Assembly: GCA_022825195.1 (NCBI GenBank)
Contig: JAJDYL010000064.1
Coordinates: 807-64,806 of the forward strand
Reading direction: 5' to 3'
From: Alphaproteobacteria bacterium
Lineage (GTDB): Bacteria > Pseudomonadota > Alphaproteobacteria > Bin95
Length of the DNA stretch: 64,000 nt
This document shows, in pieces, positions 14,373 through 58,496 of the stretch. Both the position numbers and the translations under genes were made by a program. The notes beneath the pieces were generated by a model, which did not search any database, was not told where the DNA came from, and was given only the letters and a program-made list of their open reading frames with translations. The stretch's first letter is position 1. Every line of letters begins with the position of its first letter.

Positions 14373-16325
<1,953 letters not shown>

Positions 16326-43987: not shown

Positions 43988-44419
<432 letters not shown>

Positions 44420-44449
44420 TTATTTTGAAAGGCTGTGAGAGGTGGCGCA

Positions 44450-44467
44450 GATAATTGCCCAATTATC
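44450..44467. promoter_or_regulatory. Perfect 18-bp AT-rich palindrome GATAATTGccCAATTATC upstream of glnK promoter
   Basis: 8-bp inverted arms, 2-nt spacer; about 125 nt upstream of glnK start; candidate regulator/IHF-type site. Confidence 0.3.
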
Positions 44468-44715
44468 AGGCGTAACCTCGATGGCGGGACCGATGCGATT
44501 AATTTATAGGCATTCAGGTGCAGTCACTGCCACAATTCGTAATCCGGTCGAGAGGGCGCGCAGGGTGCCCGCCTTGGAGCGAGAGTCCGGGGTGACAGTT
44601 CGGGGCAAGGCGGGGGACGGAGCACGGCGTGGCCGGGCGAGCCGGCGCACCGGATACGAGTCGAAATGAGATGTGCAAATCCGATGGGGGGCCGGGGCGC
44701 GGCGCCGAACGGCAG

Positions 44716-45201
44716 TCAGTGCAGGCGGCGGGGCAGGCTCTCCACCGATTCGGCCACCAGCGCGTCGGCGCGGGGCTTGTCCAGATGGCGCTCGATCAGG
44801 GTCCGGGCCGCCGCGGCCGAGAGCCGGACGGCATGGGCGCGCACCTCGGCGAGCGCCTCCTGCTCGGCCTGGGCGATCTTGGCGAGCGCCTGCTGTTCGC
44901 GGCGCCCGAGCGCCTCTTCGAGCGCGCGCCCGGCCTCTTCGGCGATGCGCGCCGCCTCCTCGCGCGCGTGGGCGAGCACGGCCGCGGCTTCGGCTTCCGC
45001 GCCCTCCTGCTTCCTCCGGTAGTCCGCGAGCAGGGCCTGGGCTTCCTCGCGGAGCGCCGCCGCGTCGTCCAGCGACGCCCTGATTCCCGCCGCCCTGTCG
45101 TCGAGCGCCCCGGTCGCCATCCGCCAGACCGCGCGCGCGACGGCGGCGATGAAGATCACGAAGCCGACCGCGGTCCAGAATGTGGGATCGGAGAACATCA
45201 C
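44716..45201 (-). CDS. atpF: F0F1 ATP synthase subunit b
   Basis: 161 aa, N-terminal TM helix then Ala/Glu/Arg-rich coiled coil; last gene of F0 operon. Confidence 0.8.
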   Translation of the reverse strand: MMFSDPTFWTAVGFVIFIAAVARAVWRMATGALDDRAAGIRASLDDAAALREEAQALLADYRRKQEGAEAEAAAVLAHAREEAARIAEEAGRALEEALGRREQQALAKIAQAEQEALAEVRAHAVRLSAAAARTLIERHLDKPRADALVAESVESLPRRLH

Positions 45202-45683
45202 GCGCCCGCCTGCCGGGCCGCATTGGCGGCCTCGTCCGCATCCACCTCGACGCCGATCAGCCTGGCCGTCATGGCCTGCGCGACTTCCCCCGCCGCCGCC
45301 TCGATCCCGGCCAGCGCTTGCCTGCGCGCCTCGGCGATCCGGGCTTCGGCGGCTTCGGCGTCACCGGCAATCCGTTCGCCGAGCGCCGCATGGCGGGCCG
45401 CCGCCTCGGCCGCGGCCGCTTCCTGCTGCTCGCGCAGCAGGCGGCGCGCCTCGGCGCGCGCATCCGCCTGCGCCTGCTCATAGGCGCGCAGCACGCCTTC
45501 GGCCTCGTCCCTGAGCGCCGCGGCCCGGGCGAGATCGTCGTCGATGCGCTTCTGCCGCGCCTCCAGAATGCCCTGCACGCGCGGCAGGGCGACCCTGAGC
45601 ATCACGCCCAGCAGAACGGCGAACACCACCACCAGCCAGAAGATCTGGCTCGCATAAGTCGAGATTTGCTCCAGTTGCGGCAT
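45198..45683 (-). CDS. atpF2: F0F1 ATP synthase subunit b'
   Basis: 161 aa, MPQLEQISTYASQIFWLVVVFAVLLGVML.. TM + coiled coil; overlaps atpF start. Confidence 0.8.
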   Translation of the reverse strand: MPQLEQISTYASQIFWLVVVFAVLLGVMLRVALPRVQGILEARQKRIDDDLARAAALRDEAEGVLRAYEQAQADARAEARRLLREQQEAAAAEAAARHAALGERIAGDAEAAEARIAEARRQALAGIEAAAGEVAQAMTARLIGVEVDADEAANAARQAGA

Positions 45684-45704
45684 GGCGGGCGCGGAGTCGC
45701 GGCC

Positions 45705-45929
45705 TCAGCCGAACAGGATCACGAGCGCCACGACGAGCGCGAACAGCGCAATGGCCTCGACGAGCGCGAAGCCCAGCATGGTCATCGGGAACACTTCCCC
45801 CCGCGCCGACGGGTTGCGCCCGACCGCCTGGATGAAGGAAGCGAAAATGTTGCCGATGCCGATACCGGCGCCGATGACGCCGATGACGGCAAGACCCGCG
45901 CCGATGAACTTGGCGGCTTCTAAATCCAT
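45705..45929 (-). CDS. atpE: F0F1 ATP synthase subunit c
   Basis: MDLEAAKFIGAGLAVIGVIGAGIGIGNIFASFIQAVGRNPSARGEVFPMTMLGFALVEAIALFALVVALVILFG; 74 aa proteolipid. Confidence 0.9.
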   Translation of the reverse strand: MDLEAAKFIGAGLAVIGVIGAGIGIGNIFASFIQAVGRNPSARGEVFPMTMLGFALVEAIALFALVVALVILFG

Positions 45930-45964
45930 GGGTTGGTTCCTTCTTCGCGTGGGCGGATAGCCGG

Positions 45965-46699
45965 TTAGTGGAGGTGAAGCGCGTCGTTGATGTAGAGGCA
46001 GGTGAGGATCGCGAACACATAGGCCTGGAGGAAGGCGATGACGATCTCCAGCCCCGTCAGCGCCGAGACGAAGGCGAGCGGCAGGATGCCGGCGACGCCG
46101 AGCGCCGGCACGAAGCCGGCGAAGACCTTGAGCAGGGTGTGGCCGGCCAGCATGTTGGCGAACAGGCGCACCGAAAGGCTGATCGGCCGGGAGAGGTAGG
46201 AGATGATCTCGATCGGGATCAGCAGCGGCCACATGAACACCGAGACGCCGGGCGGCACGAAGAAGCTGAAGAAGTGCATCCCGTGCTTGATGAAGCCCAG
46301 CACGGTGACGCCGACGAAGACCACCGCCGCCATGGCGAAAGTGACCGCGATATGGCTGGTGAAGGTGAAGCTGTAGGGGATCATGCCGGCGAGATTGCCG
46401 AACAGGATGAACATGAAGAGGGTGAAGATGAGCGGGAAGTATTTCCGGCCCTCGTCGCCCACCGTGTCGCGCACCATGCCGGCGATGAACTCGTAGGCGA
46501 GTTCGGCGATGGACTGCAGGCGCCCCGGCACCAGGGCGCGCTTGCGCGTGCCGCCGACCATCACCGCGATCACGCCGGCCGCGGCCACGACCATCCAGAC
46601 CGTGGAATTGGTGATGTCGAGCTGGACTCCGGCCACAGGTATGTCGACCAGCTCCTTGATCCGGAACTGCTCCAGCGGACCGTGCGCGTCTCCCGCCAC
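45965..46699 (-). CDS. atpB: F0F1 ATP synthase subunit a
   Basis: ..LSVRLFANMLAGHTLLKVF.. conserved Arg helix; GTG at 46699 chosen (track start 46768 would overlap atpI by 56 nt). Confidence 0.8.
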   Translation of the reverse strand: MAGDAHGPLEQFRIKELVDIPVAGVQLDITNSTVWMVVAAAGVIAVMVGGTRKRALVPGRLQSIAELAYEFIAGMVRDTVGDEGRKYFPLIFTLFMFILFGNLAGMIPYSFTFTSHIAVTFAMAAVVFVGVTVLGFIKHGMHFFSFFVPPGVSVFMWPLLIPIEIISYLSRPISLSVRLFANMLAGHTLLKVFAGFVPALGVAGILPLAFVSALTGLEIVIAFLQAYVFAILTCLYINDALHLH

Positions 46700-46712
46700 C
46701 CGGGTTCCCCCT

Positions 46713-47060
46713 CTAGCCTTCCTCGCCGTCCTGCCGGCGCCGCTCCCGGCGCCAGCCGGGCGCGGCATCCATGCCGCTCATATACCGGTACACATTCATC
46801 ACCCCGGCCGCCGCCCCGAGCACGAAAAAGACCACCATCAGCCAGGGCGCGGTGTCGAGCCAGCGGTCCAGCCCCCACCCGATGGCTGCACCGACCCCCA
46901 GCGCTGCCACCAGTTCCACTCCGATCCGCATGGCCGCGCCCAGCCCCTCCTTCGGGGCTGCCTTCGGCGCCTTGCCGTCGCGACGGCGCCGGGCATCGGC
47001 AAGTCTGTCGGAGAAATCGTGAAGGGGGCCGTTCCTGTCGTCTTCGCCCATTTTCGCCAC
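46713..47060 (-). CDS. atpI: ATP synthase protein I (AtpI/AtpZ family)
   Basis: 115 aa, two TM helices (..GVELVAALGVGAAIGWGLDRWLDTAPWLMVVFFVLGAAAGVMNVY..), first gene of F0 operon. Confidence 0.65.
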   Translation of the reverse strand: MAKMGEDDRNGPLHDFSDRLADARRRRDGKAPKAAPKEGLGAAMRIGVELVAALGVGAAIGWGLDRWLDTAPWLMVVFFVLGAAAGVMNVYRYMSGMDAAPGWRRERRRQDGEEG

Positions 47061-47214
47061 GAAACGCCGTCCGGCGCGAATCCCGCCCCGAAAGCGCCCG
47101 GACCCTAGGGCGGCGGCGGTCCGGCTGTCAAGAAACCGCCATGCCGGGCAAACCGTTGATCCGGCGTCGAATTAGCCTGCGATCCGGACTATGCGACAGT
47201 ATGTATCGCCGCCC

Positions 47215-48918
47215 TCAGCCGGCCGAAACGACGGTATCGGAGATGCGCTCCGCCATCATGATGGTCGGGATGTTGGTGTTGGCGCAGGGCACGGACGGCA
47301 TGATCGAGGCGTCGACCACCCTGAGCCCGGCGAGGCCGCGCACCCGGCCTTGCTCGTCCGTCACCGCCATCGGGTCGTCGTCGGCTCCCATGCGGTTGGT
47401 GCAGGAGGCGTGCCAGACCCCGACGGCCGTGGCGCGCACGAAACCCTCCAGCGCCTCGTCGTCCTCCATCATGTCGCGCAGCCTGAGGCCGCCGGTTATC
47501 AGCCGGTCGATCAGCGTCCCCCTCAGGCCGCCGGCCATGTCCAGCACGCCGCCGACGGCCTTCGAAATCATCTCGTTGCGCCTGGTCACGCGGCCCATGG
47601 CGCGCACCTTCTCGCTGTAGGAGGAGGGGAAGGTATAGCCGGCGACCCGCGCCACGGCGGGGTGTAGGTTGATGGCGGATGCGCGCAGGAAGGCATCCTT
47701 CAGCCGGTCGAGGTCGCGCTCGTCGGACAGGAGGTTGAACTCGACCTCGGGCTCCTCGCGCCAGTCCTTCGACACGAGGCGGACCTCGCCGGTGGAATAG
47801 GACTTGTTGACGAAGACGAGCAGCGAGCCGAGGCGCTCTCCGACCGCATGCCAGCCGGACTTCGAGACCTGGACGATGAACATGTCCCCCGGGGGCGCAT
47901 CGTGCAGGCCGGAGGAATAGCGCGCGCCCACATGGATGTGGCGGGCGTCCTTGCGCGTCATCCGGGACTCGCCGGGCAGCCAGGTGGAGCAGGCGACCGA
48001 GGGATGGTCCATCAGGTTCTGCCCGACCCCCGGAAGATGGTGGCGGACCTCGATGCCCATGTCGGCCAGGTGGCCCGCCGGGCCGATGCCCGAGCGAAGC
48101 AGGTGGGCCGGCGAATGCACCGCGCCGCAGCACAGCACGACCTCGCGGCCCGTGAAGGTCTCCGATACGCCCCGCCGCCCGGCCTTGACGCCCACCGCGC
48201 GCAACCCGTCGAACAGGATCTCCGACACCTGGGTCTCGGAGCGGATTTCCAGGTTCTCGCGCAGCCGCGTCGGCGGGTCGAGATAGCCGATCGCCGTCGA
48301 GACCCGGCGGTCGTAGAGGTTCGACACCGTGACCGGGAAATGGCCGTCCTCGAACGCGCCGTTCTGGTCGGTGAGATAGGGGTAGCCGAGCTCGGTCATG
48401 GCCTCCGCCACGGCCTTGGCGTAGGGCGTCCATTCCTGCTGGTAGATGCGCCGGATCGGGATGCGTCCCTCCCGCCCGTGGAGCGCGTCGTCATGGTCCA
48501 TGTCGCGCTCGAGCTTCCGGAAAAAGGGCAGGCAGGACTCCCAGCTCCAGCCCTTCGCGCCCTGGCGCCCCCAGTCGTCATAGTCGTTCGGGGCGCCCCG
48601 GTTGGCCATCTGCCCGTTGATCGACGACCCGCCGCCCATGATCCGCGCCTGCTCGTAATTGCGCAGCTCCGGCCTCTGGCTTTCGGGCAGGTTCTTGTTG
48701 ATCGGCTGGAGCCGCACCCGGAGCTTGTTCCAGGTGTAGTCCGGGTTGAAATAGGCCGTGCCGGGATAGCTCGAATGCACATCCGGCGGGATCGCGCCGT
48801 GCGGCGTGTCGATGCCCGCCTCCAGCAACAGGACCCTGTTGGCGCTCCTGGCCGAGAGCCGGTTCGCCATGACAGAGCCGGCGGACCCGCCGCCGACGAT
48901 GATGTAGTCGTACTGCAT
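47215..48918 (-). CDS. GMC family FAD-dependent oxidoreductase (choline dehydrogenase-like)
   Basis: MQYDYIIVGGGSAGSVMANRLS.. (FAD ADP-binding), ..MGADDDPMAVTDEQGRVRGLAGLRVVDASIMP..; RBS gggagg; internal ATG 48918. Confidence 0.85.
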   Translation of the reverse strand: MQYDYIIVGGGSAGSVMANRLSARSANRVLLLEAGIDTPHGAIPPDVHSSYPGTAYFNPDYTWNKLRVRLQPINKNLPESQRPELRNYEQARIMGGGSSINGQMANRGAPNDYDDWGRQGAKGWSWESCLPFFRKLERDMDHDDALHGREGRIPIRRIYQQEWTPYAKAVAEAMTELGYPYLTDQNGAFEDGHFPVTVSNLYDRRVSTAIGYLDPPTRLRENLEIRSETQVSEILFDGLRAVGVKAGRRGVSETFTGREVVLCCGAVHSPAHLLRSGIGPAGHLADMGIEVRHHLPGVGQNLMDHPSVACSTWLPGESRMTRKDARHIHVGARYSSGLHDAPPGDMFIVQVSKSGWHAVGERLGSLLVFVNKSYSTGEVRLVSKDWREEPEVEFNLLSDERDLDRLKDAFLRASAINLHPAVARVAGYTFPSSYSEKVRAMGRVTRRNEMISKAVGGVLDMAGGLRGTLIDRLITGGLRLRDMMEDDEALEGFVRATAVGVWHASCTNRMGADDDPMAVTDEQGRVRGLAGLRVVDASIMPSVPCANTNIPTIMMAERISDTVVSAG

Positions 48919-48990
48919 CGCAAGCCTCCCCGGGCGCCATTCTTCTATGCGGATGCGGAAATGGGAAGGCTTCACGGCACGAGAACGGCG

Positions 48991-49017
48991 TTGACATGCC
49001 GGCGCAAGGAATACAAT
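48991..49017 (+). promoter_or_regulatory. Sigma70-like promoter TTGACA-N15-TACAAT in AT-rich spacer upstream of hypothetical/PIN pair
   Basis: cgTTGACAtgccggcgcaaggaaTACAATact; places TSS about 30 nt upstream of ATG 49056. Confidence 0.35.
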
Positions 49018-49055
49018 ACTTAGGTAAGTAAGAACTTGCAGGACCTGGCGGACCG

Positions 49056-49622
49056 ATGGCGACGAACCGGGAACGGCTGATGAAGGAAGCGGCGGCGCGC
49101 GGCAAGTATGCGCCGCTTCACAGGCATCTGCTGTCGCTCTGGCCGGAGACCGAGTGGCGGGCCGGTTTCGACGAGGTGGAGCGGGTGCTGGGCTTCCGCC
49201 TGCCCGATTCGGCGCGCCTGCACCGGCCCTGGTGGGCCAATTCCCGCAAGGGAAGCGGACACTCCCATGCGCTCGCCTGGCAGGCGGCGGGCTGGCGGAC
49301 CGCGCGGGTCGACCTGGAGGCGGAAACGCTGGTGTTCGAGAGAGAGGCGGCGGCGATGGAGACCGCGCCGCTTCGCTATGGAGGGGAAGACGAAGACATG
49401 ACCCGGCACGGGGCGGGGCTTCGGGAGGCTTCGGCAACGATGAGCCTGGCGCCGCGGCGGGCGGCGCGGCGGCCCAGGCGCGATTTCGACCTGGACCGCG
49501 ATTTCCCGCCCTGGAACGGCGGTCCCTGGCCGGAAGGCTTCACGGTAAGCCGCGAGCAGATCTATGACGATATGGGCCGGTTGACCGGCGGACCGGAGGA
49601 CGAGTCCGGGTCCGACGGCTGA
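49056..49622 (+). CDS. Hypothetical protein, candidate cognate partner/antitoxin of downstream PIN toxin
   Basis: 188 aa; N-terminal conserved-looking domain (..VLGFRLPDSARLHRPWWANS..) plus acidic/Arg-rich low-complexity C-terminal half; stop 5 nt before PIN gene start. Confidence 0.55.
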   Translation: MATNRERLMKEAAARGKYAPLHRHLLSLWPETEWRAGFDEVERVLGFRLPDSARLHRPWWANSRKGSGHSHALAWQAAGWRTARVDLEAETLVFEREAAAMETAPLRYGGEDEDMTRHGAGLREASATMSLAPRRAARRPRRDFDLDRDFPPWNGGPWPEGFTVSREQIYDDMGRLTGGPEDESGSDG

Positions 49623-49627
49623 CCCGC

Positions 49628-50062
49628 GTGTTCCTCGATACCAATCTCTTCATCCCCGCCCGGTTCGACGCGGCCCCGGCCCACGCTTTGGCAAGGGCGG
49701 CGCTGAACCGGGCCGAGCGGTCCGGCGAGGTTCTGCGCATCAGTCGCCAGGTCATGCGCGAATATCTGGCGGCCGCGACCCGACCGCAGGCATGGTCCGC
49801 TCCCTTGCCGGTGGCGACGGCGCTTGCCGACCTCTCGTGGATGGAGGAGACGTATGAGGTGCTGGAAGACGGACCGCATGTCATGGGCACGCTGGCAGGG
49901 CTCTGCCGCGAGATACCCGTCGGCGGCAGGCAGGTGCATGACGCCAACATCGTCGCCACCATGCTGGCGCATGGCGAGCGGCGCCTGCTGACCTTCAATG
50001 TCCGGGACTTCCGCCGCTTCGCCGCCCATATCGAGCTGGTGAACCCGGAACCCGCCGCATAG
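49628..50062 (+). CDS. vapC: PIN-domain ribonuclease, type II toxin VapC family
   Basis: VFLDTNLFI.. (PIN Asp1), ..QVHDANIVATMLAHGERRLLTFNVRDFRRF (C-terminal acidic residue region); GTG start; 144 aa. Confidence 0.8.
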   Translation: MFLDTNLFIPARFDAAPAHALARAALNRAERSGEVLRISRQVMREYLAAATRPQAWSAPLPVATALADLSWMEETYEVLEDGPHVMGTLAGLCREIPVGGRQVHDANIVATMLAHGERRLLTFNVRDFRRFAAHIELVNPEPAA

Positions 50063-50780
50063 GCCGGGCCGCCTGCGCGCCGCCGTTCCTCAGCCGGTCC
50101 GGCACGGCGAGGCGGCTCCAGGGGAAGGCATGGACCCGCTCCCGGCCGGGCAGCAGGACCCGCGGCGGCCGGGCGAACAGCATGCGGACCGCCGGGTCGT
50201 GGACATCGAGCCCGCCCGTATAGGCGCCGAAGGCCGGCAGCAGCAGGCGCTTCCCGTCGGTGACGAACGCCCGGCCGGAGACCTGCCGCCGCCCGGTCGA
50301 GACCGTCGCGCGCGGGTGCAGATGGCCCGCCACCTCTCCCGGCGCCGGGTGCGGATGCGGCTCATGGCGGAACAGGAGCGGTCCGGCGCGCCATTCGGCG
50401 AGCGCGCATCCGCCGAAGCCCGCCGGCGGTTCGGGGTCGTGGTTGCCGCGCAGCCAGAGCCATTCGTAGCTTCGCGCAAGCCGGTCGAGACGGTGCGCCG
50501 CCTCCCGGTCGAGACGCGCGCCCGCGTCCGGGTCGTGGAATCCGTCGCCGAGCGACACCCAGCGCGCCGGCCGGTAGTCCCTGGCCAGCGCCTCCAGGCG
50601 GTCCAGGGTCGCATGGCTGTCATAGGGCGGCAGCAGCGCGCCGCCTTCGGCCGCGAAGGCCGAGCCCTTTCCGAAATGCAGGTCGGCGACGATGAGCGTC
50701 CGCGTCTCCGGCCACCAGAGCGCGCCCGAAGGGTCGGCGGCGAGCGAGGCCCCGTTCAGCCGGAAGGAGGCCGCCGTCAA
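49995..50780 (-). CDS. pdeM: Ligase-associated DNA damage response endonuclease PdeM (calcineurin-like metallophosphoesterase)
   Basis: ..WWPETRTLIVADLHFGKGSAF.., ..LWLRGNHD..; start overlaps lhr stop by 4 nt; 3' end overlaps vapC convergently. Confidence 0.8.
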   Translation of the reverse strand: MTAASFRLNGASLAADPSGALWWPETRTLIVADLHFGKGSAFAAEGGALLPPYDSHATLDRLEALARDYRPARWVSLGDGFHDPDAGARLDREAAHRLDRLARSYEWLWLRGNHDPEPPAGFGGCALAEWRAGPLLFRHEPHPHPAPGEVAGHLHPRATVSTGRRQVSGRAFVTDGKRLLLPAFGAYTGGLDVHDPAVRMLFARPPRVLLPGRERVHAFPWSRLAVPDRLRNGGAQAARPMRRVPGSPARYGRRSGGSPGH

Positions 50781-53236
50781 AGCGGGAGTTCCGCCATGCC
50801 CGCACCGTCCATGGCTTCGGCCACGAGCTCGCTCTCGCTCTCGGCCGCCGTCTCGGCCAGCAGTTCCTCGATGGCGCCGCCATAGACGAACTCCTTGCCG
50901 ATCTCGAGCAGGACCGGCACGGCGAGCGGCGACACGCGGTCGAGGCGGCGCACTTCTATCCGGCCCCTGGCGCGGGCGAGCATCCCGCCCAGCCGGCGAA
51001 TGTCGGTCAGCCCCCTGGCGGCGTCGCGCCTCGTTGCGCGCAGCAGGAGGTGGTTGGGCTCATGCCGGCGCAGCACGTCGTAGATGAGGTCGGCGTTGAA
51101 GGTGACCTGGCGGCGGGTCTTTTCCCGCCCCGGATGGCGGCGTTCGATCAGCCCCGCCACGACCGCCACATTGCGGAAGGTCCGCCTGAGCAGGGTCGAC
51201 TCCGCCATCCAGTCTTCGAGGTCGTCGCCCAGCATGTCCTCGGAGAACAGCCCGTCCATCTCCTCGGCCTCGCGCAGGCTCCAGACCGCCAGCACATAGT
51301 CCGACGCGCAGAAGCCGAGCGGCCCGAGCCCCGCGCGCTCCATGCGCCGGGTCAGCAGCATGCCGAGCGTCTGGTGGGCGTTGCGCCCCTCGAAACAATA
51401 GGCGACGAGATACCATTTGCCGCCGCGCGGGAAGGTTTCGACCAGGAGCCCGCCCGGACGCGGCAGCACGGAGCGCCAGTCCTGCGCGCTGAGCCATTCC
51501 AGCACGTCGGGCGGGAACTCCCGCCAGCGCCGCCGGTCGGCGAGCAGGCCGCGCACCCGCTCGGCGAGATGCGTGGTCAGCGGCAGCCGCCCGCCGCCAT
51601 AGGCAGGAATGCGCGGCGCCTCGCCTGTGGCGGAAGAGGTGCGGATGGTCATGTCCCGGATGCCCTCGAAGCGCAGCATCCGGCCGGCGAACACGAAGGT
51701 GTCGCCCGGCGTCAGCGTGTTGGCGAAATACTCCTCCACCTCGCCGAGCACGCGCCCGCCGAGCCGGACCTTCAGCGTCACCGCCTCGACGATGGTGCCG
51801 ACATTCATCCGGTAGCGCCGCACCACGTCCCCGTTGGCGGCCCGCAGCCGGCCGGAGGCATCGCGCTTCAGCCGCCGGTAGCGTTCATAGGCGCCGAGCG
51901 CATAGCCCCCGGTCGCCACGAAATCGACGGTTTCCGAGAAGGTCCTGCGGGTAAGGCCGCGATAGGGATGCGCGCGGCGCACCTCGCGGAACAGCGCCTC
52001 CTCCTCGAACGGCCCGGACGCCGCAACGCCGGCTATGTGCTGGGCCAGCACATCCAGTCCGCCGGGCTCCGGCGCGTCGCCGTCGAGCGTACCCGCGCGG
52101 ATCGCGTCGATGGCGGCATGGCATTCCAGCACCTCGAAGCGGTTGGCCGGCACCAGCAGCGCCCGGCTCGGCCGGTCGAGGCGGTGGTTGGAGCGCCCGA
52201 GACGCTGTAGCAGCCGCGCCGCGCCCTTGGGCGCGCCGACCTGCACCACGAGGTCCACATCGCCCCAGTCGATGCCGAGGTCGAGCGAGGAGGTGGCCAC
52301 GACGGCCCGCAGCCGGCCCGCCGCCATCGCCGCCTCAACCTTGCGGCGCTGCTCCGGGGCGAGGCTGCCGTGATGCAGCGCAATGGCGAGGCCGTCCTCG
52401 TTGAGGTCCCAGAGCCCGCGGAAGATGAGCTCCGCCTGGGCGCGGGTGTTGACGAAGACGATGGTCGTCCGGTGGTCCCGGATGGCCGCATGGATCTCTT
52501 CCAGCGCATAAACGGCCATGTGGCCGGACCAGGGCATCGGCCCGCGCATCCTCGCAATGGCGATTTCCGGCGCGATGCCGCCCCGCCCGACCACAACCTC
52601 GACATCCGGCTCCCGTCCGGCGCTGGGCGAAAGCCAGGCGGCCAGATAGTCCCGGTCGGCGACCGTGGCGGAAAGCGCCGTCCGCCGCGCTCCGGGCGCC
52701 ATGCCGCCGAGTCGCGCCAGGCCGAGCGACAGCAGGTCGCCCCGCTTGTTGTCGGCAAGCGCGTGCAGCTCATCGACGATGACGCAGCGAAGGCTGGCGA
52801 ACAGCGCCGGGGCGTCCGGCCAGGAGAGCATCAGCGCCAGCGACTCCGGCGTGGTCATCAGCATTTGCGGCGGCTTCCGGCGCTGGCGCTCCCGCTTGCG
52901 CTGCGGCGTGTCGCCGGTGCGGGTCTCGACCCCGATATCGAGGCCCATTTCCGCGATCGGGGCCTCCAGATTGCGGTGGATATCGACGGCCAGCGCCTTC
53001 AGCGGCGAGACATAGAGCGTGTGCAGGCCGGGGCGCGGCGCCGTTGCGAGTTCGGCGATGCTCGGCAGGAAACCCGCGAGCGTCTTGCCGCCGCCGGTCG
53101 GCGCGACCAGCAGGGCCGAGCGGCCGGCGTCGGCCGCGCGCCACATCTCCAGCTGATGGGCATGGGGCCGCCAGCCGCGCGCCCGGAACCAGCCGCGGAT
53201 CGCGGCGGGTTGCGCAACCCCGATGCCTGCCTCCAT
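50777..53236 (-). CDS. lhr: Ligase-associated DNA damage response DEXH-box helicase (Lhr-like)
   Basis: ..LLVAPTGGGKTLAGFLP (motif I), ..CVIVDELHALADNKRG (DExH), ..about 820 aa; ATG 53236 has GGAAGGAAG RBS (alt ATG 53272); track ORF N-terminal 330 aa is shadow. Confidence 0.85.
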   Translation of the reverse strand: MEAGIGVAQPAAIRGWFRARGWRPHAHQLEMWRAADAGRSALLVAPTGGGKTLAGFLPSIAELATAPRPGLHTLYVSPLKALAVDIHRNLEAPIAEMGLDIGVETRTGDTPQRKRERQRRKPPQMLMTTPESLALMLSWPDAPALFASLRCVIVDELHALADNKRGDLLSLGLARLGGMAPGARRTALSATVADRDYLAAWLSPSAGREPDVEVVVGRGGIAPEIAIARMRGPMPWSGHMAVYALEEIHAAIRDHRTTIVFVNTRAQAELIFRGLWDLNEDGLAIALHHGSLAPEQRRKVEAAMAAGRLRAVVATSSLDLGIDWGDVDLVVQVGAPKGAARLLQRLGRSNHRLDRPSRALLVPANRFEVLECHAAIDAIRAGTLDGDAPEPGGLDVLAQHIAGVAASGPFEEEALFREVRRAHPYRGLTRRTFSETVDFVATGGYALGAYERYRRLKRDASGRLRAANGDVVRRYRMNVGTIVEAVTLKVRLGGRVLGEVEEYFANTLTPGDTFVFAGRMLRFEGIRDMTIRTSSATGEAPRIPAYGGGRLPLTTHLAERVRGLLADRRRWREFPPDVLEWLSAQDWRSVLPRPGGLLVETFPRGGKWYLVAYCFEGRNAHQTLGMLLTRRMERAGLGPLGFCASDYVLAVWSLREAEEMDGLFSEDMLGDDLEDWMAESTLLRRTFRNVAVVAGLIERRHPGREKTRRQVTFNADLIYDVLRRHEPNHLLLRATRRDAARGLTDIRRLGGMLARARGRIEVRRLDRVSPLAVPVLLEIGKEFVYGGAIEELLAETAAESESELVAEAMDGAGMAELPL

Positions 53237-53281
53237 GCCGCCGGCTTCCTTCCCCGGGCCCGAGGAGGCCATAGTAGCGCG

Positions 53282-54271
53282 ATGGCGGATGCGCTCGAAG
53301 ACTGGCTCCGGCCGACGCCTGCGGGCCTCTGGTGCGAGCCCGGCGGGTTCCATATCGACCCGCAGCGGGCCGTGCCGCGCGCCCTCGTCACCCACGGCCA
53401 TGCCGACCATGCGCGCCCCGGCCACGGCGCGGTGCTCGCGACCCCGGAGACGCTCGCGATCATGGCGCTGCGCTATCCGCGCGACCGCCCTGCCCGCCAG
53501 GCGCTCCGCTATGGCGAGACCGTCCGGTCGGGCGGCGTCTCCGTCCGGCTGGCGCCCGCGGGCCATGTGCTCGGCTCGGCCCAGGCGGTGCTCGAATATC
53601 GCGGGCGGCGGGTGGTCGTCTCGGGTGACTACAAGCGCACGCCCGACCCGACCTGCGCCGCCTTCGAGCCGGTGCGGGCCGATGTCTTCATCACCGAGGC
53701 GACCTTCGGCCTGCCGGTGTTCCGCCTTCCGGACGACAGGGACGAGACCGCCCGCCTGCTGCGCTCGGTCGAGACCTTCCCCGACCGCTGCCATGTCATC
53801 GGCGCCTACAGCCTCGGCAAGTGCCAGCGGATGCTGGGCCTGCTGCGCCGCGCCGGCTGCGACCGGCCGATATGGCTGCATCCGGCGCTCGACGAGATGA
53901 CGGGGCTCTATCGGCAATTCGGGGCCGACCTCGGGGAAACGCGCCCGCTCGGAGACGCCGGCGGCCTCGCCGGCGAAATCGTGCTTCATCCTCCGGGGCC
54001 GGAGCAGCGGACGGACCGCTTCGCCGACCCGGTGCGGGTGTTCGCCTCGGGCTGGATGCAGATCCGCGCCCATGCGCGCCGGCGCGGCGTCGAGTTGCCG
54101 CTCGCCATTTCCGACCATGCCGACTGGACGGGGCTCACGGCCACCATCGCCGAGACCGACGCGTCGGAGATTCGCGTGACGCACGGATCGCCCGACGCCC
54201 TGATCCGCTGGGCGCAGGGCCGGGGCCTCGACGCCCGGCCGCTCGAAGCGCCGGGCAGCCACGCCCGATGA
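53282..54271 (+). CDS. Ligase-associated DNA damage response exonuclease (MBL-fold/beta-CASP)
   Basis: ..ALVTHGHADHARPGHG.. (HxHxDH), ..VVVSGDYKRTPDP..; divergent from lhr with 45 bp (or 9 bp) between start codons. Confidence 0.85.
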   Translation: MADALEDWLRPTPAGLWCEPGGFHIDPQRAVPRALVTHGHADHARPGHGAVLATPETLAIMALRYPRDRPARQALRYGETVRSGGVSVRLAPAGHVLGSAQAVLEYRGRRVVVSGDYKRTPDPTCAAFEPVRADVFITEATFGLPVFRLPDDRDETARLLRSVETFPDRCHVIGAYSLGKCQRMLGLLRRAGCDRPIWLHPALDEMTGLYRQFGADLGETRPLGDAGGLAGEIVLHPPGPEQRTDRFADPVRVFASGWMQIRAHARRRGVELPLAISDHADWTGLTATIAETDASEIRVTHGSPDALIRWAQGRGLDARPLEAPGSHAR

Positions 54272-55863
54272 GGGCTTTCGCCGCGCTGCTGGACGGGCTT
54301 GCGTCTGCGCCCTCGCCCGCCGTCCGGGTCCGCCTGATGGCCGACTATCTGGGGCGGGCGCGGGACCCCGAGCGGGGCTGGGCGCTGGCCGTGCTCGCCG
54401 GCGGCCTCGACACCGCCCGCGTCCGGCCGGCGGCCTTCCGTGCGCTTGCGGCGGCGCGGGTGGACGGCGAGCTTCTGCGCCTGTCGCTCGAATTCGTCGG
54501 CGACCCGGTCGAGACGGCCGCGCTCGTCTGGCCGGAAAGCGGGGCTGCGCCCTGCCCGCCGCCGCTCGCCGAGGTCGCGCCCGCGCTCGCCGGCAGCTCG
54601 CGGCAGGCGGCGCCGGGGCTGCTCGCCCGCTGGTTCGACCGTTCGGACATGCCCGTCCGCCGGGCGCTGGCGCATCTCTCCGCCGGGCGTGCGGCCAGGG
54701 ACGTCACGCCGCGCGTCGCGAGAACGGCGCTCGCTTCCGCCTTCGCCGCCGATCTCGGCGCCATCGAGGAAGTCTGGCACGGGCAGGCTCCGCCCTACGG
54801 GCCCCTCTTCGCCTGGCTGGAAGGCCGCGCGCCGCGCCCCGAGACGGTCGCCGGCTTCCGCCCGCTCATGCCGGTCCGCCCGCTCGATGACGCGGCTGCC
54901 GCCGATCTCGATCTCTCCGGCTACCGGGCCGAGCGGCAATGGCCGGGCCTGCGCGTGCAGCTCGTGGCGGAGGCGGGCCGACAACGGCTCTACAGCGGGT
55001 CGGGAGACGATATCTCATCCCGTTTCCCGGACATCGTCGCGGCGATGGAGGGGCTGGAGGGCGTGTTCGACGGTGTGCTGATGGCGGCCTCCGGCCCGGA
55101 CGGCCCGCCCTACGGGCCGGCGCCGCCGGAAGCGCTCGAAAGGCGGCTCGGACGCCGGAGCGCCACGAGCCGGCTGCTCGCGGAACTCCCGGCCTTCGTG
55201 CGCCTTTTCGACCTGCTGTTCGACGGCGCCGACGACATTCGCGCGTTGCCGCTCCGGCAACGGCGGGCGCGGCTCGAAGCGCGGATCGCCGGCCGGCCCC
55301 GCTTCGACCTGTCGCCGCTGCTCGCCCTCGAAGGGCCGGAGGCGCTGGACGCGCCTTCCCGCCGCGGTGTCTCCCTGGTGCTGAAATCCGCCGACGCTCC
55401 CTATCTTCCCGGCGGTTCGTCCTGGCTTGTCCGCAAGGCCGCGCCGCGGACGGTCCGCGCGCTGCTCCTCGCCGTGCGGCCCGGCGGGATCGGGGAACGC
55501 GGCCCGAGCTACAGTGTCGCGCTGCTGCGGGACGGCGCACCGGTTTCCGTCGGCGACGCGCCCTCCCGCCTCGACAAGGCGGAACGCGACCGGCTGGACC
55601 GTTGGATTCGCACCCGCATATCGGGGCGCTACGGCCCCGTCCGCGCCGTCGAGCCGGGGCTCATACTGGAGGTCGTGTTCGAAGCGGTCCGCGCCGCGCC
55701 CCGCCGCAAATCGGGCCTTGCGCTCGTCAGCCCCGAAATACGCCGTATCCTCTGGGACCTGCCGGCGGATGCCGCGGACAGCCTGCAACGATTGACGGCG
55801 CCGGTCAGCCGTCCGCCAGCAGCCGGTCGAGCTTCCCGCTCATCGCCTTCTGGTTCTCGATGA
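54268..55863 (+). CDS. ATP-dependent DNA ligase homolog (ligase-associated DDR cluster) with degenerate motif I
   Basis: Start overlaps exonuclease stop (ATGA); motifs III-VI recognisable (..FDGVLM.., ..LVLKSADAPY.., ..WLVRK..) but motif I reads ERQWPGLRVQ instead of KxDGxR. Confidence 0.75.
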   Translation: MRAFAALLDGLASAPSPAVRVRLMADYLGRARDPERGWALAVLAGGLDTARVRPAAFRALAAARVDGELLRLSLEFVGDPVETAALVWPESGAAPCPPPLAEVAPALAGSSRQAAPGLLARWFDRSDMPVRRALAHLSAGRAARDVTPRVARTALASAFAADLGAIEEVWHGQAPPYGPLFAWLEGRAPRPETVAGFRPLMPVRPLDDAAAADLDLSGYRAERQWPGLRVQLVAEAGRQRLYSGSGDDISSRFPDIVAAMEGLEGVFDGVLMAASGPDGPPYGPAPPEALERRLGRRSATSRLLAELPAFVRLFDLLFDGADDIRALPLRQRRARLEARIAGRPRFDLSPLLALEGPEALDAPSRRGVSLVLKSADAPYLPGGSSWLVRKAAPRTVRALLLAVRPGGIGERGPSYSVALLRDGAPVSVGDAPSRLDKAERDRLDRWIRTRISGRYGPVRAVEPGLILEVVFEAVRAAPRRKSGLALVSPEIRRILWDLPADAADSLQRLTAPVSRPPAAGRASRSSPSGSR

Positions 55864-56188
55864 TCTCGTTCTGGCGCTGCGCCAGACCGGTCACGACCCG
55901 GACGATGTCGTTCTGCCGTTGGATAATCGCTTTCTGATTGATCTCGGCCTGCTCGGCCCGCGTTTCCAGAAGGCCGGCCGACTCGGAGTTCGCCTTGACC
56001 TCAAGCACCAGCCAGCCGAGCGCGCCGAGAAATGCCGCGACGACCACCACCGCCAGCGGATGGCGCGTGAAGTCCGCGGCGGCGTTGGTGCGCCGGTCGA
56101 TCAGGCGCTCTATCGCGTCGAGCTGCGCCGGCGTGAACGGTGCATCGGCCTTGTCCATGAAAGCGCTCTTCTGCAACGACCAAGCCAA
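55805..56188 (-). CDS. Hypothetical single-TM protein with C-terminal coiled coil
   Basis: 127 aa; ..HPLAVVVVAAFLGALGWLVLEV.. then Gln/Glu-rich heptads; 3' end overlaps ligase 3' end by about 59 nt. Confidence 0.45.
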   Translation of the reverse strand: MAWSLQKSAFMDKADAPFTPAQLDAIERLIDRRTNAAADFTRHPLAVVVVAAFLGALGWLVLEVKANSESAGLLETRAEQAEINQKAIIQRQNDIVRVVTGLAQRQNEIIENQKAMSGKLDRLLADG

Positions 56189-58294: not shown

Positions 58295-58368
58295 GGCGCG
58301 GTGGGAGAGTGGCTATCCATCGGACTGCAAATCCGCTTACACCGGTTCGAATCCGGTCCGCGCCTCCA
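58295..58368 (+). tRNA. tRNA-Cys (GCA)
   Basis: GGCGCGG..tcgga-CTGCAAA-tccgc..accggTTCGAATccggt-CCGCGCC-T-CCA; 7-bp acceptor stem, anticodon loop cuGCAaa, T-loop TTCGAAT; resembles E. coli tRNA-Cys. Confidence 0.8.
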
Positions 58369-58421: not shown

Positions 58422-58496
58422 TCCGCGGTAGCTCAGTGGTAGAGCGGTCGGCTGTTAACCGATTGGTCGTAGGTTCGAATCCTACCCGCGGAGCCA
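58422..58496 (+). tRNA. tRNA-Asn (GTT)
   Basis: TCCGCGGTAGCTCAGTGGTAGAGCGGTCGGCTGTTAACCGATTGGTCGTAGGTTCGAATCCTACCCGCGGAGCCA; canonical cloverleaf, anticodon loop cuGUUaa. Confidence 0.9.

Follow-up and report, generated by a model that had tools for sequence, protein, structure and literature searches.

A predicted pseudo-ligase under purifying selection in the Lhr/PdeM/Exo repair gene cluster of uncultured Alphaproteobacteria

The 64,000-nucleotide stretch of alphaproteobacterial DNA analysed here (assembly GCA_022825195.1, contig JAJDYL010000064.1, positions 807 to 64,806; hereafter the window) carries the known four-gene ligase-associated damage-response cluster, in which PdeM and Lhr are read leftwards and Exo and a ligase gene rightwards. 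The product of the ligase gene descends from the ATP-dependent DNA ligase LigB, and its clade as a whole has lost the nucleotidyl-transfer motifs of that family. We find that the clade is under purifying selection and that its pattern of change is not one of decay. We propose that the protein is a non-catalytic descendant of LigB kept by selection as a ligase-fold subunit, most likely as a partner of Exo, an interpretation to which we assign a probability of roughly 0.6.

The ligase-associated repair cluster

The pseudo-ligase gene occupies 54268..55863 on the forward strand and comprises 531 codons, as defined by its open reading frame (ORF) and translation. Its start codon, the ATG at 54268, shares the tetranucleotide ATGA with the TGA of the upstream Exo gene. 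The 531-residue product can be divided into a DNA-binding domain (DBD, residues ~1-200), a nucleotidyltransferase domain (NTase, ~201-392), an OB domain (~393-510) and a disordered tail (510-531). It aligns with the LigB profile TIGR04120 over residues 2-510, covering profile positions 1-523 of 526, with a score of 386.3 bits that falls under the equivalog cut-off of 400; the canonical LigB of Azospirillum reaches 815.7 bits on the same profile. Its sole Pfam match is PF01068 (34.1 bits, above the cut-off of 26.2, the match starting at profile position 23), and neither PF04679 nor PF04675 matches it at E <= 0.1; canonical relatives have both PF01068 and PF04679. An AlphaFold2 model recovers the full three-domain fold (pLDDT 91, pTM 0.82), leaving the last 18 residues alone disordered, and the best matches of this model among PDB structures in Foldseek are three-domain ligases, namely archaeal ligases, human Lig1 and LigIV.

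The products of the other three genes of the cluster each exceed the equivalog cut-off of their NCBIfam family. They also retain their catalytic motifs, as the initial annotation had maintained. Exo, a ligase-associated exonuclease of the metallo-beta-lactamase (MBL) fold, spans 53282..54271 on the forward strand and encodes 329 residues with the motif HGHADH (TIGR04122, 414 bits against a cut-off of 325). Divergent from Exo, on the reverse strand, lies Lhr (50777..53236), an Lhr-Core-type DEXH helicase of 819 residues with the motifs APTGGGKT and DELH (TIGR04121, 1098 bits against 850); it is read here from the Met at 53236, another possible start being at 53272. PdeM, the MPE metallophosphoesterase endonuclease (49995..50780, reverse strand), encodes 261 residues with the motif GNHD (TIGR04123, 217 bits against 150), and its start overlaps the stop of Lhr.

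A tblastn search revealed no further ligase within the 64 kb window. A second candidate at 14898-15380 (E=0.002) was discarded as spurious, since it falls in another reading frame of an acetyl-CoA synthetase gene.

Catalytic motifs of the pseudo-ligase

All motif remnants described here lie on the forward strand. Motif I is represented at 54931..54954 by E222-R-Q224-W-P226-G-L-R229, where canonical proteins have E-W-K-W-D-G-I-R. Nucleotides 54937-54948 read CAA TGG CCG GGC and encode Q224-W-P226-G, inside YRAERQWPGLRVQL. Alignments obtained with phmmer against archaeal ligase structures, with MAFFT against 86 canonical LigB proteins and with a profile hidden Markov model (HMM) built from those proteins agree in assigning Q224 to the column of the motif I Lys nucleophile and P226 to that of the Asp, the posterior support of the profile-HMM alignment being maximal at this point. 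The replacement of Lys and Asp by Gln and Pro, first seen in the initial annotation, is thus confirmed; the same profile HMM was used to look for an alternative conserved lysine in motif I, and none emerged. The motif I Glu, Gly and Arg are kept. The accompanying argument that each of the two changes takes two or three substitutions per codon stands for Asp, since GAY to CCG requires at least two, and fails for Lys, for which AAG to CAG or AAA to CAA is a single step. Among 33 clade members, position 224 is Gln in 29 and Glu, Leu, His or Asp in one each, and position 226 is Pro (20), Ser (5), Gln (4), Ala (2), Glu (1) or Val (1). The count of exactly four lysines in the protein (K373, K390, K437 and K481), none of them in a KxDG context, also proved correct.

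The losses extend beyond motif I, and the earlier reading of motifs III to VI as retained does not hold. In motif Ia (54991..55011) the canonical YSRxGDD has become YSGSGDD, with the substitution R244G. Motif III (55066..55083) reads FDGVLM in place of LDGELL (E270V), and Val occupies the Glu270 column in 32 of 33 clade members. Motif IV (55369..55386) reads VSLVLK where canonical proteins have IEGLMLK; its Glu-Gly pair is gone, and its Lys373 is invariant throughout the clade and the canonical proteins. The GRPKG loop that precedes motif V is deleted, and motif V itself (55423..55437) reads WLVRK instead of WFKWK, so that KWK has become VRK: the first Lys is gone (K388V), and the second is present in only 21 of 33 clade members. 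At motif VI (55723..55761) the protein has LVSPEIRRILWDL against the canonical MRFPRVxRIRWDK, three Arg and the Lys being replaced; the stretch RFPRxxRIRWDK has turned into VSPEIRRILWDL, that is, RFPR...R..K into VSPE...L..L. These replacements are themselves conserved, the clade consensus of the motif being E-R-P-E...L...L. Motif IIIa (55201..55218, RLFDLL) is retained, with an aromatic Phe in the place of Tyr and the invariant Asp.

What survives is the half of the pocket that contacts adenosine: Glu222, Arg229, Phe314-Asp315 of motif IIIa, and the aliphatic residues of motif IV together with Lys373. These residues are invariant or near-invariant in the clade, and the phosphate- and metal-contacting residues are all lost. 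According to a review of ligase residue roles (PMC7470946), the motif I Glu contacts adenine N6, the motif I Arg the ribose and the motif IV Lys adenine N1. No Lys, His or Cys that could replace the lost nucleophile is conserved around motif I, and the sole invariant Lys is the adenine-contacting one of motif IV. Because the residues that handle the metal, the AMP phosphate, the 5'-phosphate of the nick and the pyrophosphate (PPi) leaving group are lost together with the nucleophilic Lys, established enzymology (PMC7470946) leaves no route to canonical self-adenylation or sealing. Judged from its sequence, the protein is very probably unable to ligate in the canonical manner.

A clade sharing the losses

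A search of 5.8 billion proteins assembled the clade to which the window protein belongs. It consists of 34 protein clusters (at 90% identity) from uncultured Alphaproteobacteria, 59-100% identical to the window protein, all with the same set of losses and with a near-constant length of 512-536 residues. Canonical LigB begins abruptly at ~48-49% identity to the window protein. Among orthologues, the nearest (59-81% identity) lack KxDG and canonical ones appear only at or below 49%, so the change is lineage-specific and yet maintained, which does not amount to simple decay. At the DNA level, all eight member loci that were read (the window; L001-L006, from metagenome-assembled genomes (MAGs) in GTDB; and L045, the locus of the deepest clade member) have an intact ligase ORF and the same four-gene layout. 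No frameshift was found in the seven related ligase loci, and L045, whose Lhr is 87% and whose ligase is 60% identical to that of the window, still shows the layout intact.

A sequencing or assembly artefact that masks true AAG and GAC codons was considered for the motif I change. The identical protein is present in an ENA assembly scaffold and in an independent Logan assembly, and the same substitutions, along with five other motif losses, recur in the 34 clusters and the seven other loci. Two assemblies with an identical protein and a change common to 34 clusters exclude a sequencing error, and we regard the probability of an artefact as negligible.

Selection and evolutionary rate

Pairwise Nei-Gojobori estimates within the clade gave dN/dS values of 0.26 for the pseudo-ligase, 0.21 for Exo, 0.18 for PdeM and 0.09 for Lhr. 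For the pseudo-ligase the ratio lies at 0.24-0.27 in each of the three domains, with dS of ~0.5-0.7. Of 188 columns conserved at 95% or more in canonical LigB, the clade keeps 108, and some 33 show another state in the clade, substituted or deleted, whose own conservation there is 90% or more; R223, V270, P287, R292, R397, R404, P405, D430, R434, R480, E490, L495 and L498 are examples. Several of these clade-conserved replacements are charge reversals, located in the OB domain and motif VI. The share of near-invariant canonical columns that is kept falls from 76% in the DBD to 58% in the NTase and 39% in the OB domain.

The clade is therefore under purifying selection, in a pattern that is not one of decay. 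With its catalytic residues gone, its fold kept in the model and its sequence conserved clade-wide, the protein is predicted to be a pseudoenzyme. The initial annotation had suggested a dead pseudo-ligase in an otherwise intact operon, and the clade-wide loss of all nucleotidyl-transfer motifs, the purifying selection and the three intact neighbours bear this out.

Other lysine-less LigB lineages

The window clade is not alone in lacking the motif I Lys. An HMMER scan covering 1.84 billion representatives at 50% identity, in which the window clade amounts to one representative, yielded 89 full-length proteins among the top 150 matches; 50 of these 89 lack the motif I Lys, a proportion that over-counts fast-evolving dead forms and is not to be read as a frequency, although it does reveal that distinct Lys-less lineages are numerous. 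The full catalytic set is found in 17 of the 39 that keep the Lys. All 50 Lys-less representatives (100%) keep the motif I Gly, 98% the motif IIIa Asp, 88% the motif I Arg and 78% the motif IV Lys. The motif I Glu follows at 62% and the stacking aromatic at 48%, and rarely kept are the motif III Glu (24%), the motif IV Glu (12%) and the first motif V Lys (4%).

Two such proteins come from cultured bacteria, Oceanibacterium hippocampi (WP_176244920.1, P0174) and Monaibacterium marinum (WP_180955858.1, P0191). Both, as well as a third from a MAG (MFO1236060.1, P0185), bear the NCBI name 'cisplatin damage response ATP-dependent DNA ligase'. Their TIGR04120 scores are 469-489 bits (468-489 when P0168 is added), all above 400. 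Being less degenerate than the window protein, with scores in this range, several are named by NCBI as active ligases.

Eight further Lys-less lineages were compared in their genomic context. Five of them keep the stop/start overlap of Exo and the ligase gene, one of these with Lhr and PdeM nearby, and in another of the eight Lhr, Exo and the ligase gene are interspersed with unrelated genes. Of the remaining two, one has Lhr beside the ligase gene in its locus and lacks Exo, and the other is an orphan. Most dead-ligase lineages thus preserve the overlap, including some in which Lhr is not a neighbour, and Exo and Lhr keep their catalytic motifs wherever the motif-bearing part lies on the contig.

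A neighbour-joining tree of the ligase proteins was tried for counting losses and rejected, its star-like shape and long branches making it uninformative; best-hit analysis was likewise set aside, as it does not separate one ancient loss from many. We used the slowly evolving Lhr instead because the ligase tree was uninformative. Bootstrap support for the window clade on the Lhr tree is 100%, two other dead-ligase loci group with the canonical Tepidamorphus locus at 99%, and all dead lineages come together in none of 200 bootstrap replicates. Since the window clade stands apart from a 99% group that mixes dead and canonical loci, the tree indicates at least two independent inactivations.

Loci anchored on Exo

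The ligase slot was also viewed from its neighbour, in a sample of the 80 metagenome loci most similar to a canonical Exo. Forty-eight of these were informative, and the sample, chosen by similarity, gives no frequency: a canonical ligase follows in 31 of the 48, a dead ligase in none, and the remainder have no ligase after Exo. The slot is accordingly found in canonical, dead-retained and absent states, which marks it as evolutionarily labile.

The ligase-less loci (JGI contigs L069, L073, L085, L088, L090, L097, L107, L109, L119, L120 and others) have a divergent Lhr in 16 of 17 cases and form a clade of their own on the Lhr tree, with 100% bootstrap support. At L073, genes for Ku and a LigD-type ligase come after Exo. 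PMC7826289 names variants of four and of two genes, but not this three-gene Lhr/PdeM/Exo form.

Interpretation of the pseudo-ligase

That the protein is maintained for some function is, in our assessment, highly probable. In the mechanism that we propose, the pseudo-ligase would serve the module as a subunit that gives structure or binds DNA, and its likeliest partner would be the nuclease Exo, to which it is coupled in translation. Its tasks might include the binding or marking of nicks, gaps or ends, or the positioning or regulation of Exo; the final seal would then fall to another ligase, for instance the NAD+-dependent LigA. The latter is the replication ligase of bacteria. Exo as the specific partner is the more tentative part of the proposal, with a chance somewhat short of even.

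Several observations weigh against a maintained Exo partner. Within the clade, ligase dN is 4.6 times that of Lhr and 1.8 times that of Exo, whereas in close canonical pairs it approximates that of Exo and the canonical ligase rate is similar to those of Lhr and Exo. This calibration uses close pairs only (L009, L018, L024), since dN/dS in distant canonical pairs is inflated by dS saturation in GC-rich genes. The same acceleration can be read from protein identities: where Lhr is 58-67% identical, canonical ligases are 56-68% identical to one another, and at equal Lhr identity the clade and canonical ligases share just 43-49%. A clade ligase that evolves faster than its neighbours and than canonical ligases is clearly under relaxed constraint. 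Numerous conserved basic residues on the surfaces with which canonical NTase and OB domains contact DNA have also been replaced (R244G, R383G, K388V, R391A, R405P, R410E and K430D), and with them canonical nick clamping may have been lost. The coupling to Exo has exceptions as well. At L133 (GCA_030428405.1, JAUIEH010000023.1), where the motif I Lys is replaced by Asn, Lhr lies ~4.7 kb upstream and there is no Exo; the 241-residue ORF directly before the ligase has no detectable similarity to Exo, which may have been lost or replaced at this locus while the dead ligase persists. Another Lys-less homologue, L048, is an orphan with neither Exo nor Lhr nearby. Conversely, 17 of the 48 loci of the Exo-anchored sample have no ligase after Exo, and 16 of these 17 still have Lhr, so the module is not universally in need of a ligase-shaped subunit. 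Exo-ligase fusions provide no evidence of interaction either: the candidates P0122 (840 residues), P0201 (730) and P0272 (632) are frameshifts, in which Exo shifts frame at about residue 220-230 and continues into the open upstream stretch of the ligase frame (open in the window from 53629), and they are probably assembly errors in GC-rich contigs.

The acceleration, the existence of ligase-less clusters of Lhr and Exo, the dead homologues that are orphaned or stand beside a lost Exo, and the ease with which long spurious ORFs arise in high-GC DNA would all fit a slowly decaying, functionless relic, the ORF of which persists because little time has passed or because its coupling to Exo makes removal mildly deleterious. 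We consider this improbable. A dN/dS of 0.26 that is uniform over three domains at dS ~0.5-0.7, the lack of frameshifts in the seven related loci and the narrow range of lengths in the 34 clusters speak against it, as do the dozens of replaced positions that are strongly conserved in the clade, the intact layout of its deepest member and the confident AlphaFold2 model. An enzyme that is still active by a non-canonical route is less probable again and would be surprising. It might use another nucleophile, confine itself to sealing or de-adenylating AppDNA nicks, or follow a different nucleotidyl-transfer chemistry. The nucleoside-binding side of the pocket is preserved, and some ligases in which the motif I Lys has been mutated can still perform step 3 when the substrate is already adenylated. 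However, the residues of steps 2 and 3 are gone too (the motif I Asp, III Glu, IV Glu, V Lys and Ia Arg; roles in PMC7470946), the surroundings of motif I offer no conserved Lys, His or Cys as a substitute, and position 226 varies freely among Pro, Ser, Gln, Ala, Glu and Val. The unprecedented mechanism that the initial annotation had left as an alternative founders on the same loss of the residues that handle metal, phosphate and leaving group.

The preserved adenosine side of the pocket means that an adenine-nucleotide or AMP-DNA ligand might still bind, and the protein could then be a ligand-dependent sensor or regulator instead of a passive scaffold. The near-invariance in the clade of nucleoside-contacting residues, set against the loss of all phosphate and metal contacts, is consistent with this role, and so is the finding that the 50 Lys-less representatives keep the motif I Gly and Arg, the IIIa Asp and the IV Lys far above the III and IV Glu and the V Lys. 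These residues may, however, persist for fold stability alone, and neither the stacking aromatic nor the motif I Glu is strongly kept in the same proteins; on balance, we judge a nucleotide-binding pseudoenzyme to be unlikely.

Returning to the selected ligase-fold subunit, a wider proposal can be put forward tentatively, although we doubt it somewhat more than we credit it. Dead LigB may be a recurrent and positively maintained part of the Lhr-Core/MPE/Exo module, a partner or regulator of Exo that works independently of ligation and is possibly gated by an adenine nucleotide, and this role may lie hidden in canonical LigB.

Other features of the window

The window has a G+C content of ~72-75% and a GC3 near 0.9, a composition that gives rise to many long spurious ORFs on both strands. 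Immediately beyond the pseudo-ligase, a called ORF of 117 residues without a Pfam match (55805-56158, reverse strand) is convergent with it and covers its last ~59 nt, which encode the disordered, non-conserved tail; this ORF may be one of the spurious high-GC kind. On the other side of the cluster, a DUF7662 gene and a PIN-domain gene follow each other at 49056-50062 (forward strand) and are likely a toxin-antitoxin-like pair; the PIN ORF runs towards PdeM and shares ~68 nt with the 3' end of that gene. Upstream of the repair cluster, at ~44000-49500 and following the annotation of L043, lie an F0 ATP synthase operon (a, c, b, b' and AtpI-like) and a GMC oxidoreductase gene. The sole matches above Rfam gathering scores in the 64 kb are tRNA-Cys(GCA) at 58295-58368 and tRNA-Asn(GTT) at 58422-58496, both on the forward strand, and the Rfam search found no rRNA gene in the window.

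Significance and comparison with known systems

In the searchable literature on the gene cluster, Lig B and dead or pseudo ligases, we found neither a natural Lys-less LigB nor a naturally dead DNA ligase under selection. Pseudoenzymes are common in general, and the surprise is thus moderate and not extreme. Lineages that keep the shape of a ligase and not its ligation offer a natural separation-of-function experiment for the Lhr-Core/MPE/Exo/LigB cluster, implying that the ligase subunit has structural or regulatory work to do or that sealing has passed to another ligase. They also expose a systematic annotation error, since Lys-less proteins are named as active ligases in RefSeq and GenBank, which inflates counts of bacterial ATP-dependent ligases and the pathway inferences derived from them. 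The hypothesis can be addressed directly in the two cultured strains, O. hippocampi and M. marinum.

Both the four-gene cluster and a two-gene Lhr-Core and MPE variant have been described (PMC7826289). The pseudo-ligase is a LigB orthologue by descent and position: it shares full-length homology with canonical LigB (TIGR04120), at 43-49% identity, the same DBD-NTase-OB architecture, and the same slot after Exo, with stop/start overlap, beside Lhr and PdeM. It differs in lacking the motif I Lys and Asp, the Ia Arg, the III Glu, the IV Glu, the first V Lys and motif VI, in scoring 386 against ~816 bits on TIGR04120 without PF04679, and in evolving several-fold faster relative to Lhr. Whereas the Lig B enzymes that have been characterised seal nicks autonomously (PMC7470946), the window protein is predicted not to do so by the canonical mechanism. 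The other Lys-less proteins (WP_176244920.1, WP_180955858.1, P0168 and P0185) belong to the same family, combine a change of the motif I Lys to Gln or Leu with losses in motifs III to V and mostly share the coupling of Exo to the ligase gene. They are nevertheless separate lineages, the two that can be placed on the Lhr tree (P0185 and P0205) falling outside the window clade; they are less degenerate, and several lack an adjacent Lhr-PdeM pair.

A further parallel is provided by the structural role of Lig4 in eukaryotic non-homologous end joining (NHEJ). Artemis, a nuclease of the MBL/beta-CASP type, attaches to LigIV at the DNA-binding domain of the latter, an arrangement reminiscent of the pairing of the MBL nuclease Exo with the pseudo-ligase, and the LigIV-Artemis complexes 3w1b and 3w1g are among the Foldseek matches of the window model. 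Lig4 deprived of its activity continues to promote repair and to support the repair complex (PMC9638927, PMC11754673, bioRxiv 10.1101/2022.10.26.513880), and a ligase fold with a repair role independent of ligation is what we propose for the window protein. The Lig4 cases, however, concern an active enzyme that has BRCT/XRCC4 partners and was inactivated by point mutation in the laboratory, whereas the inactivation described here is natural, ancient, spread over all motifs and bacterial, and the pairing with Exo is a proposed one. If dead LigB is indeed a recurrent, maintained part of its module, it would be the natural equivalent in bacteria of the structural part played by Lig4 in eukaryotes.

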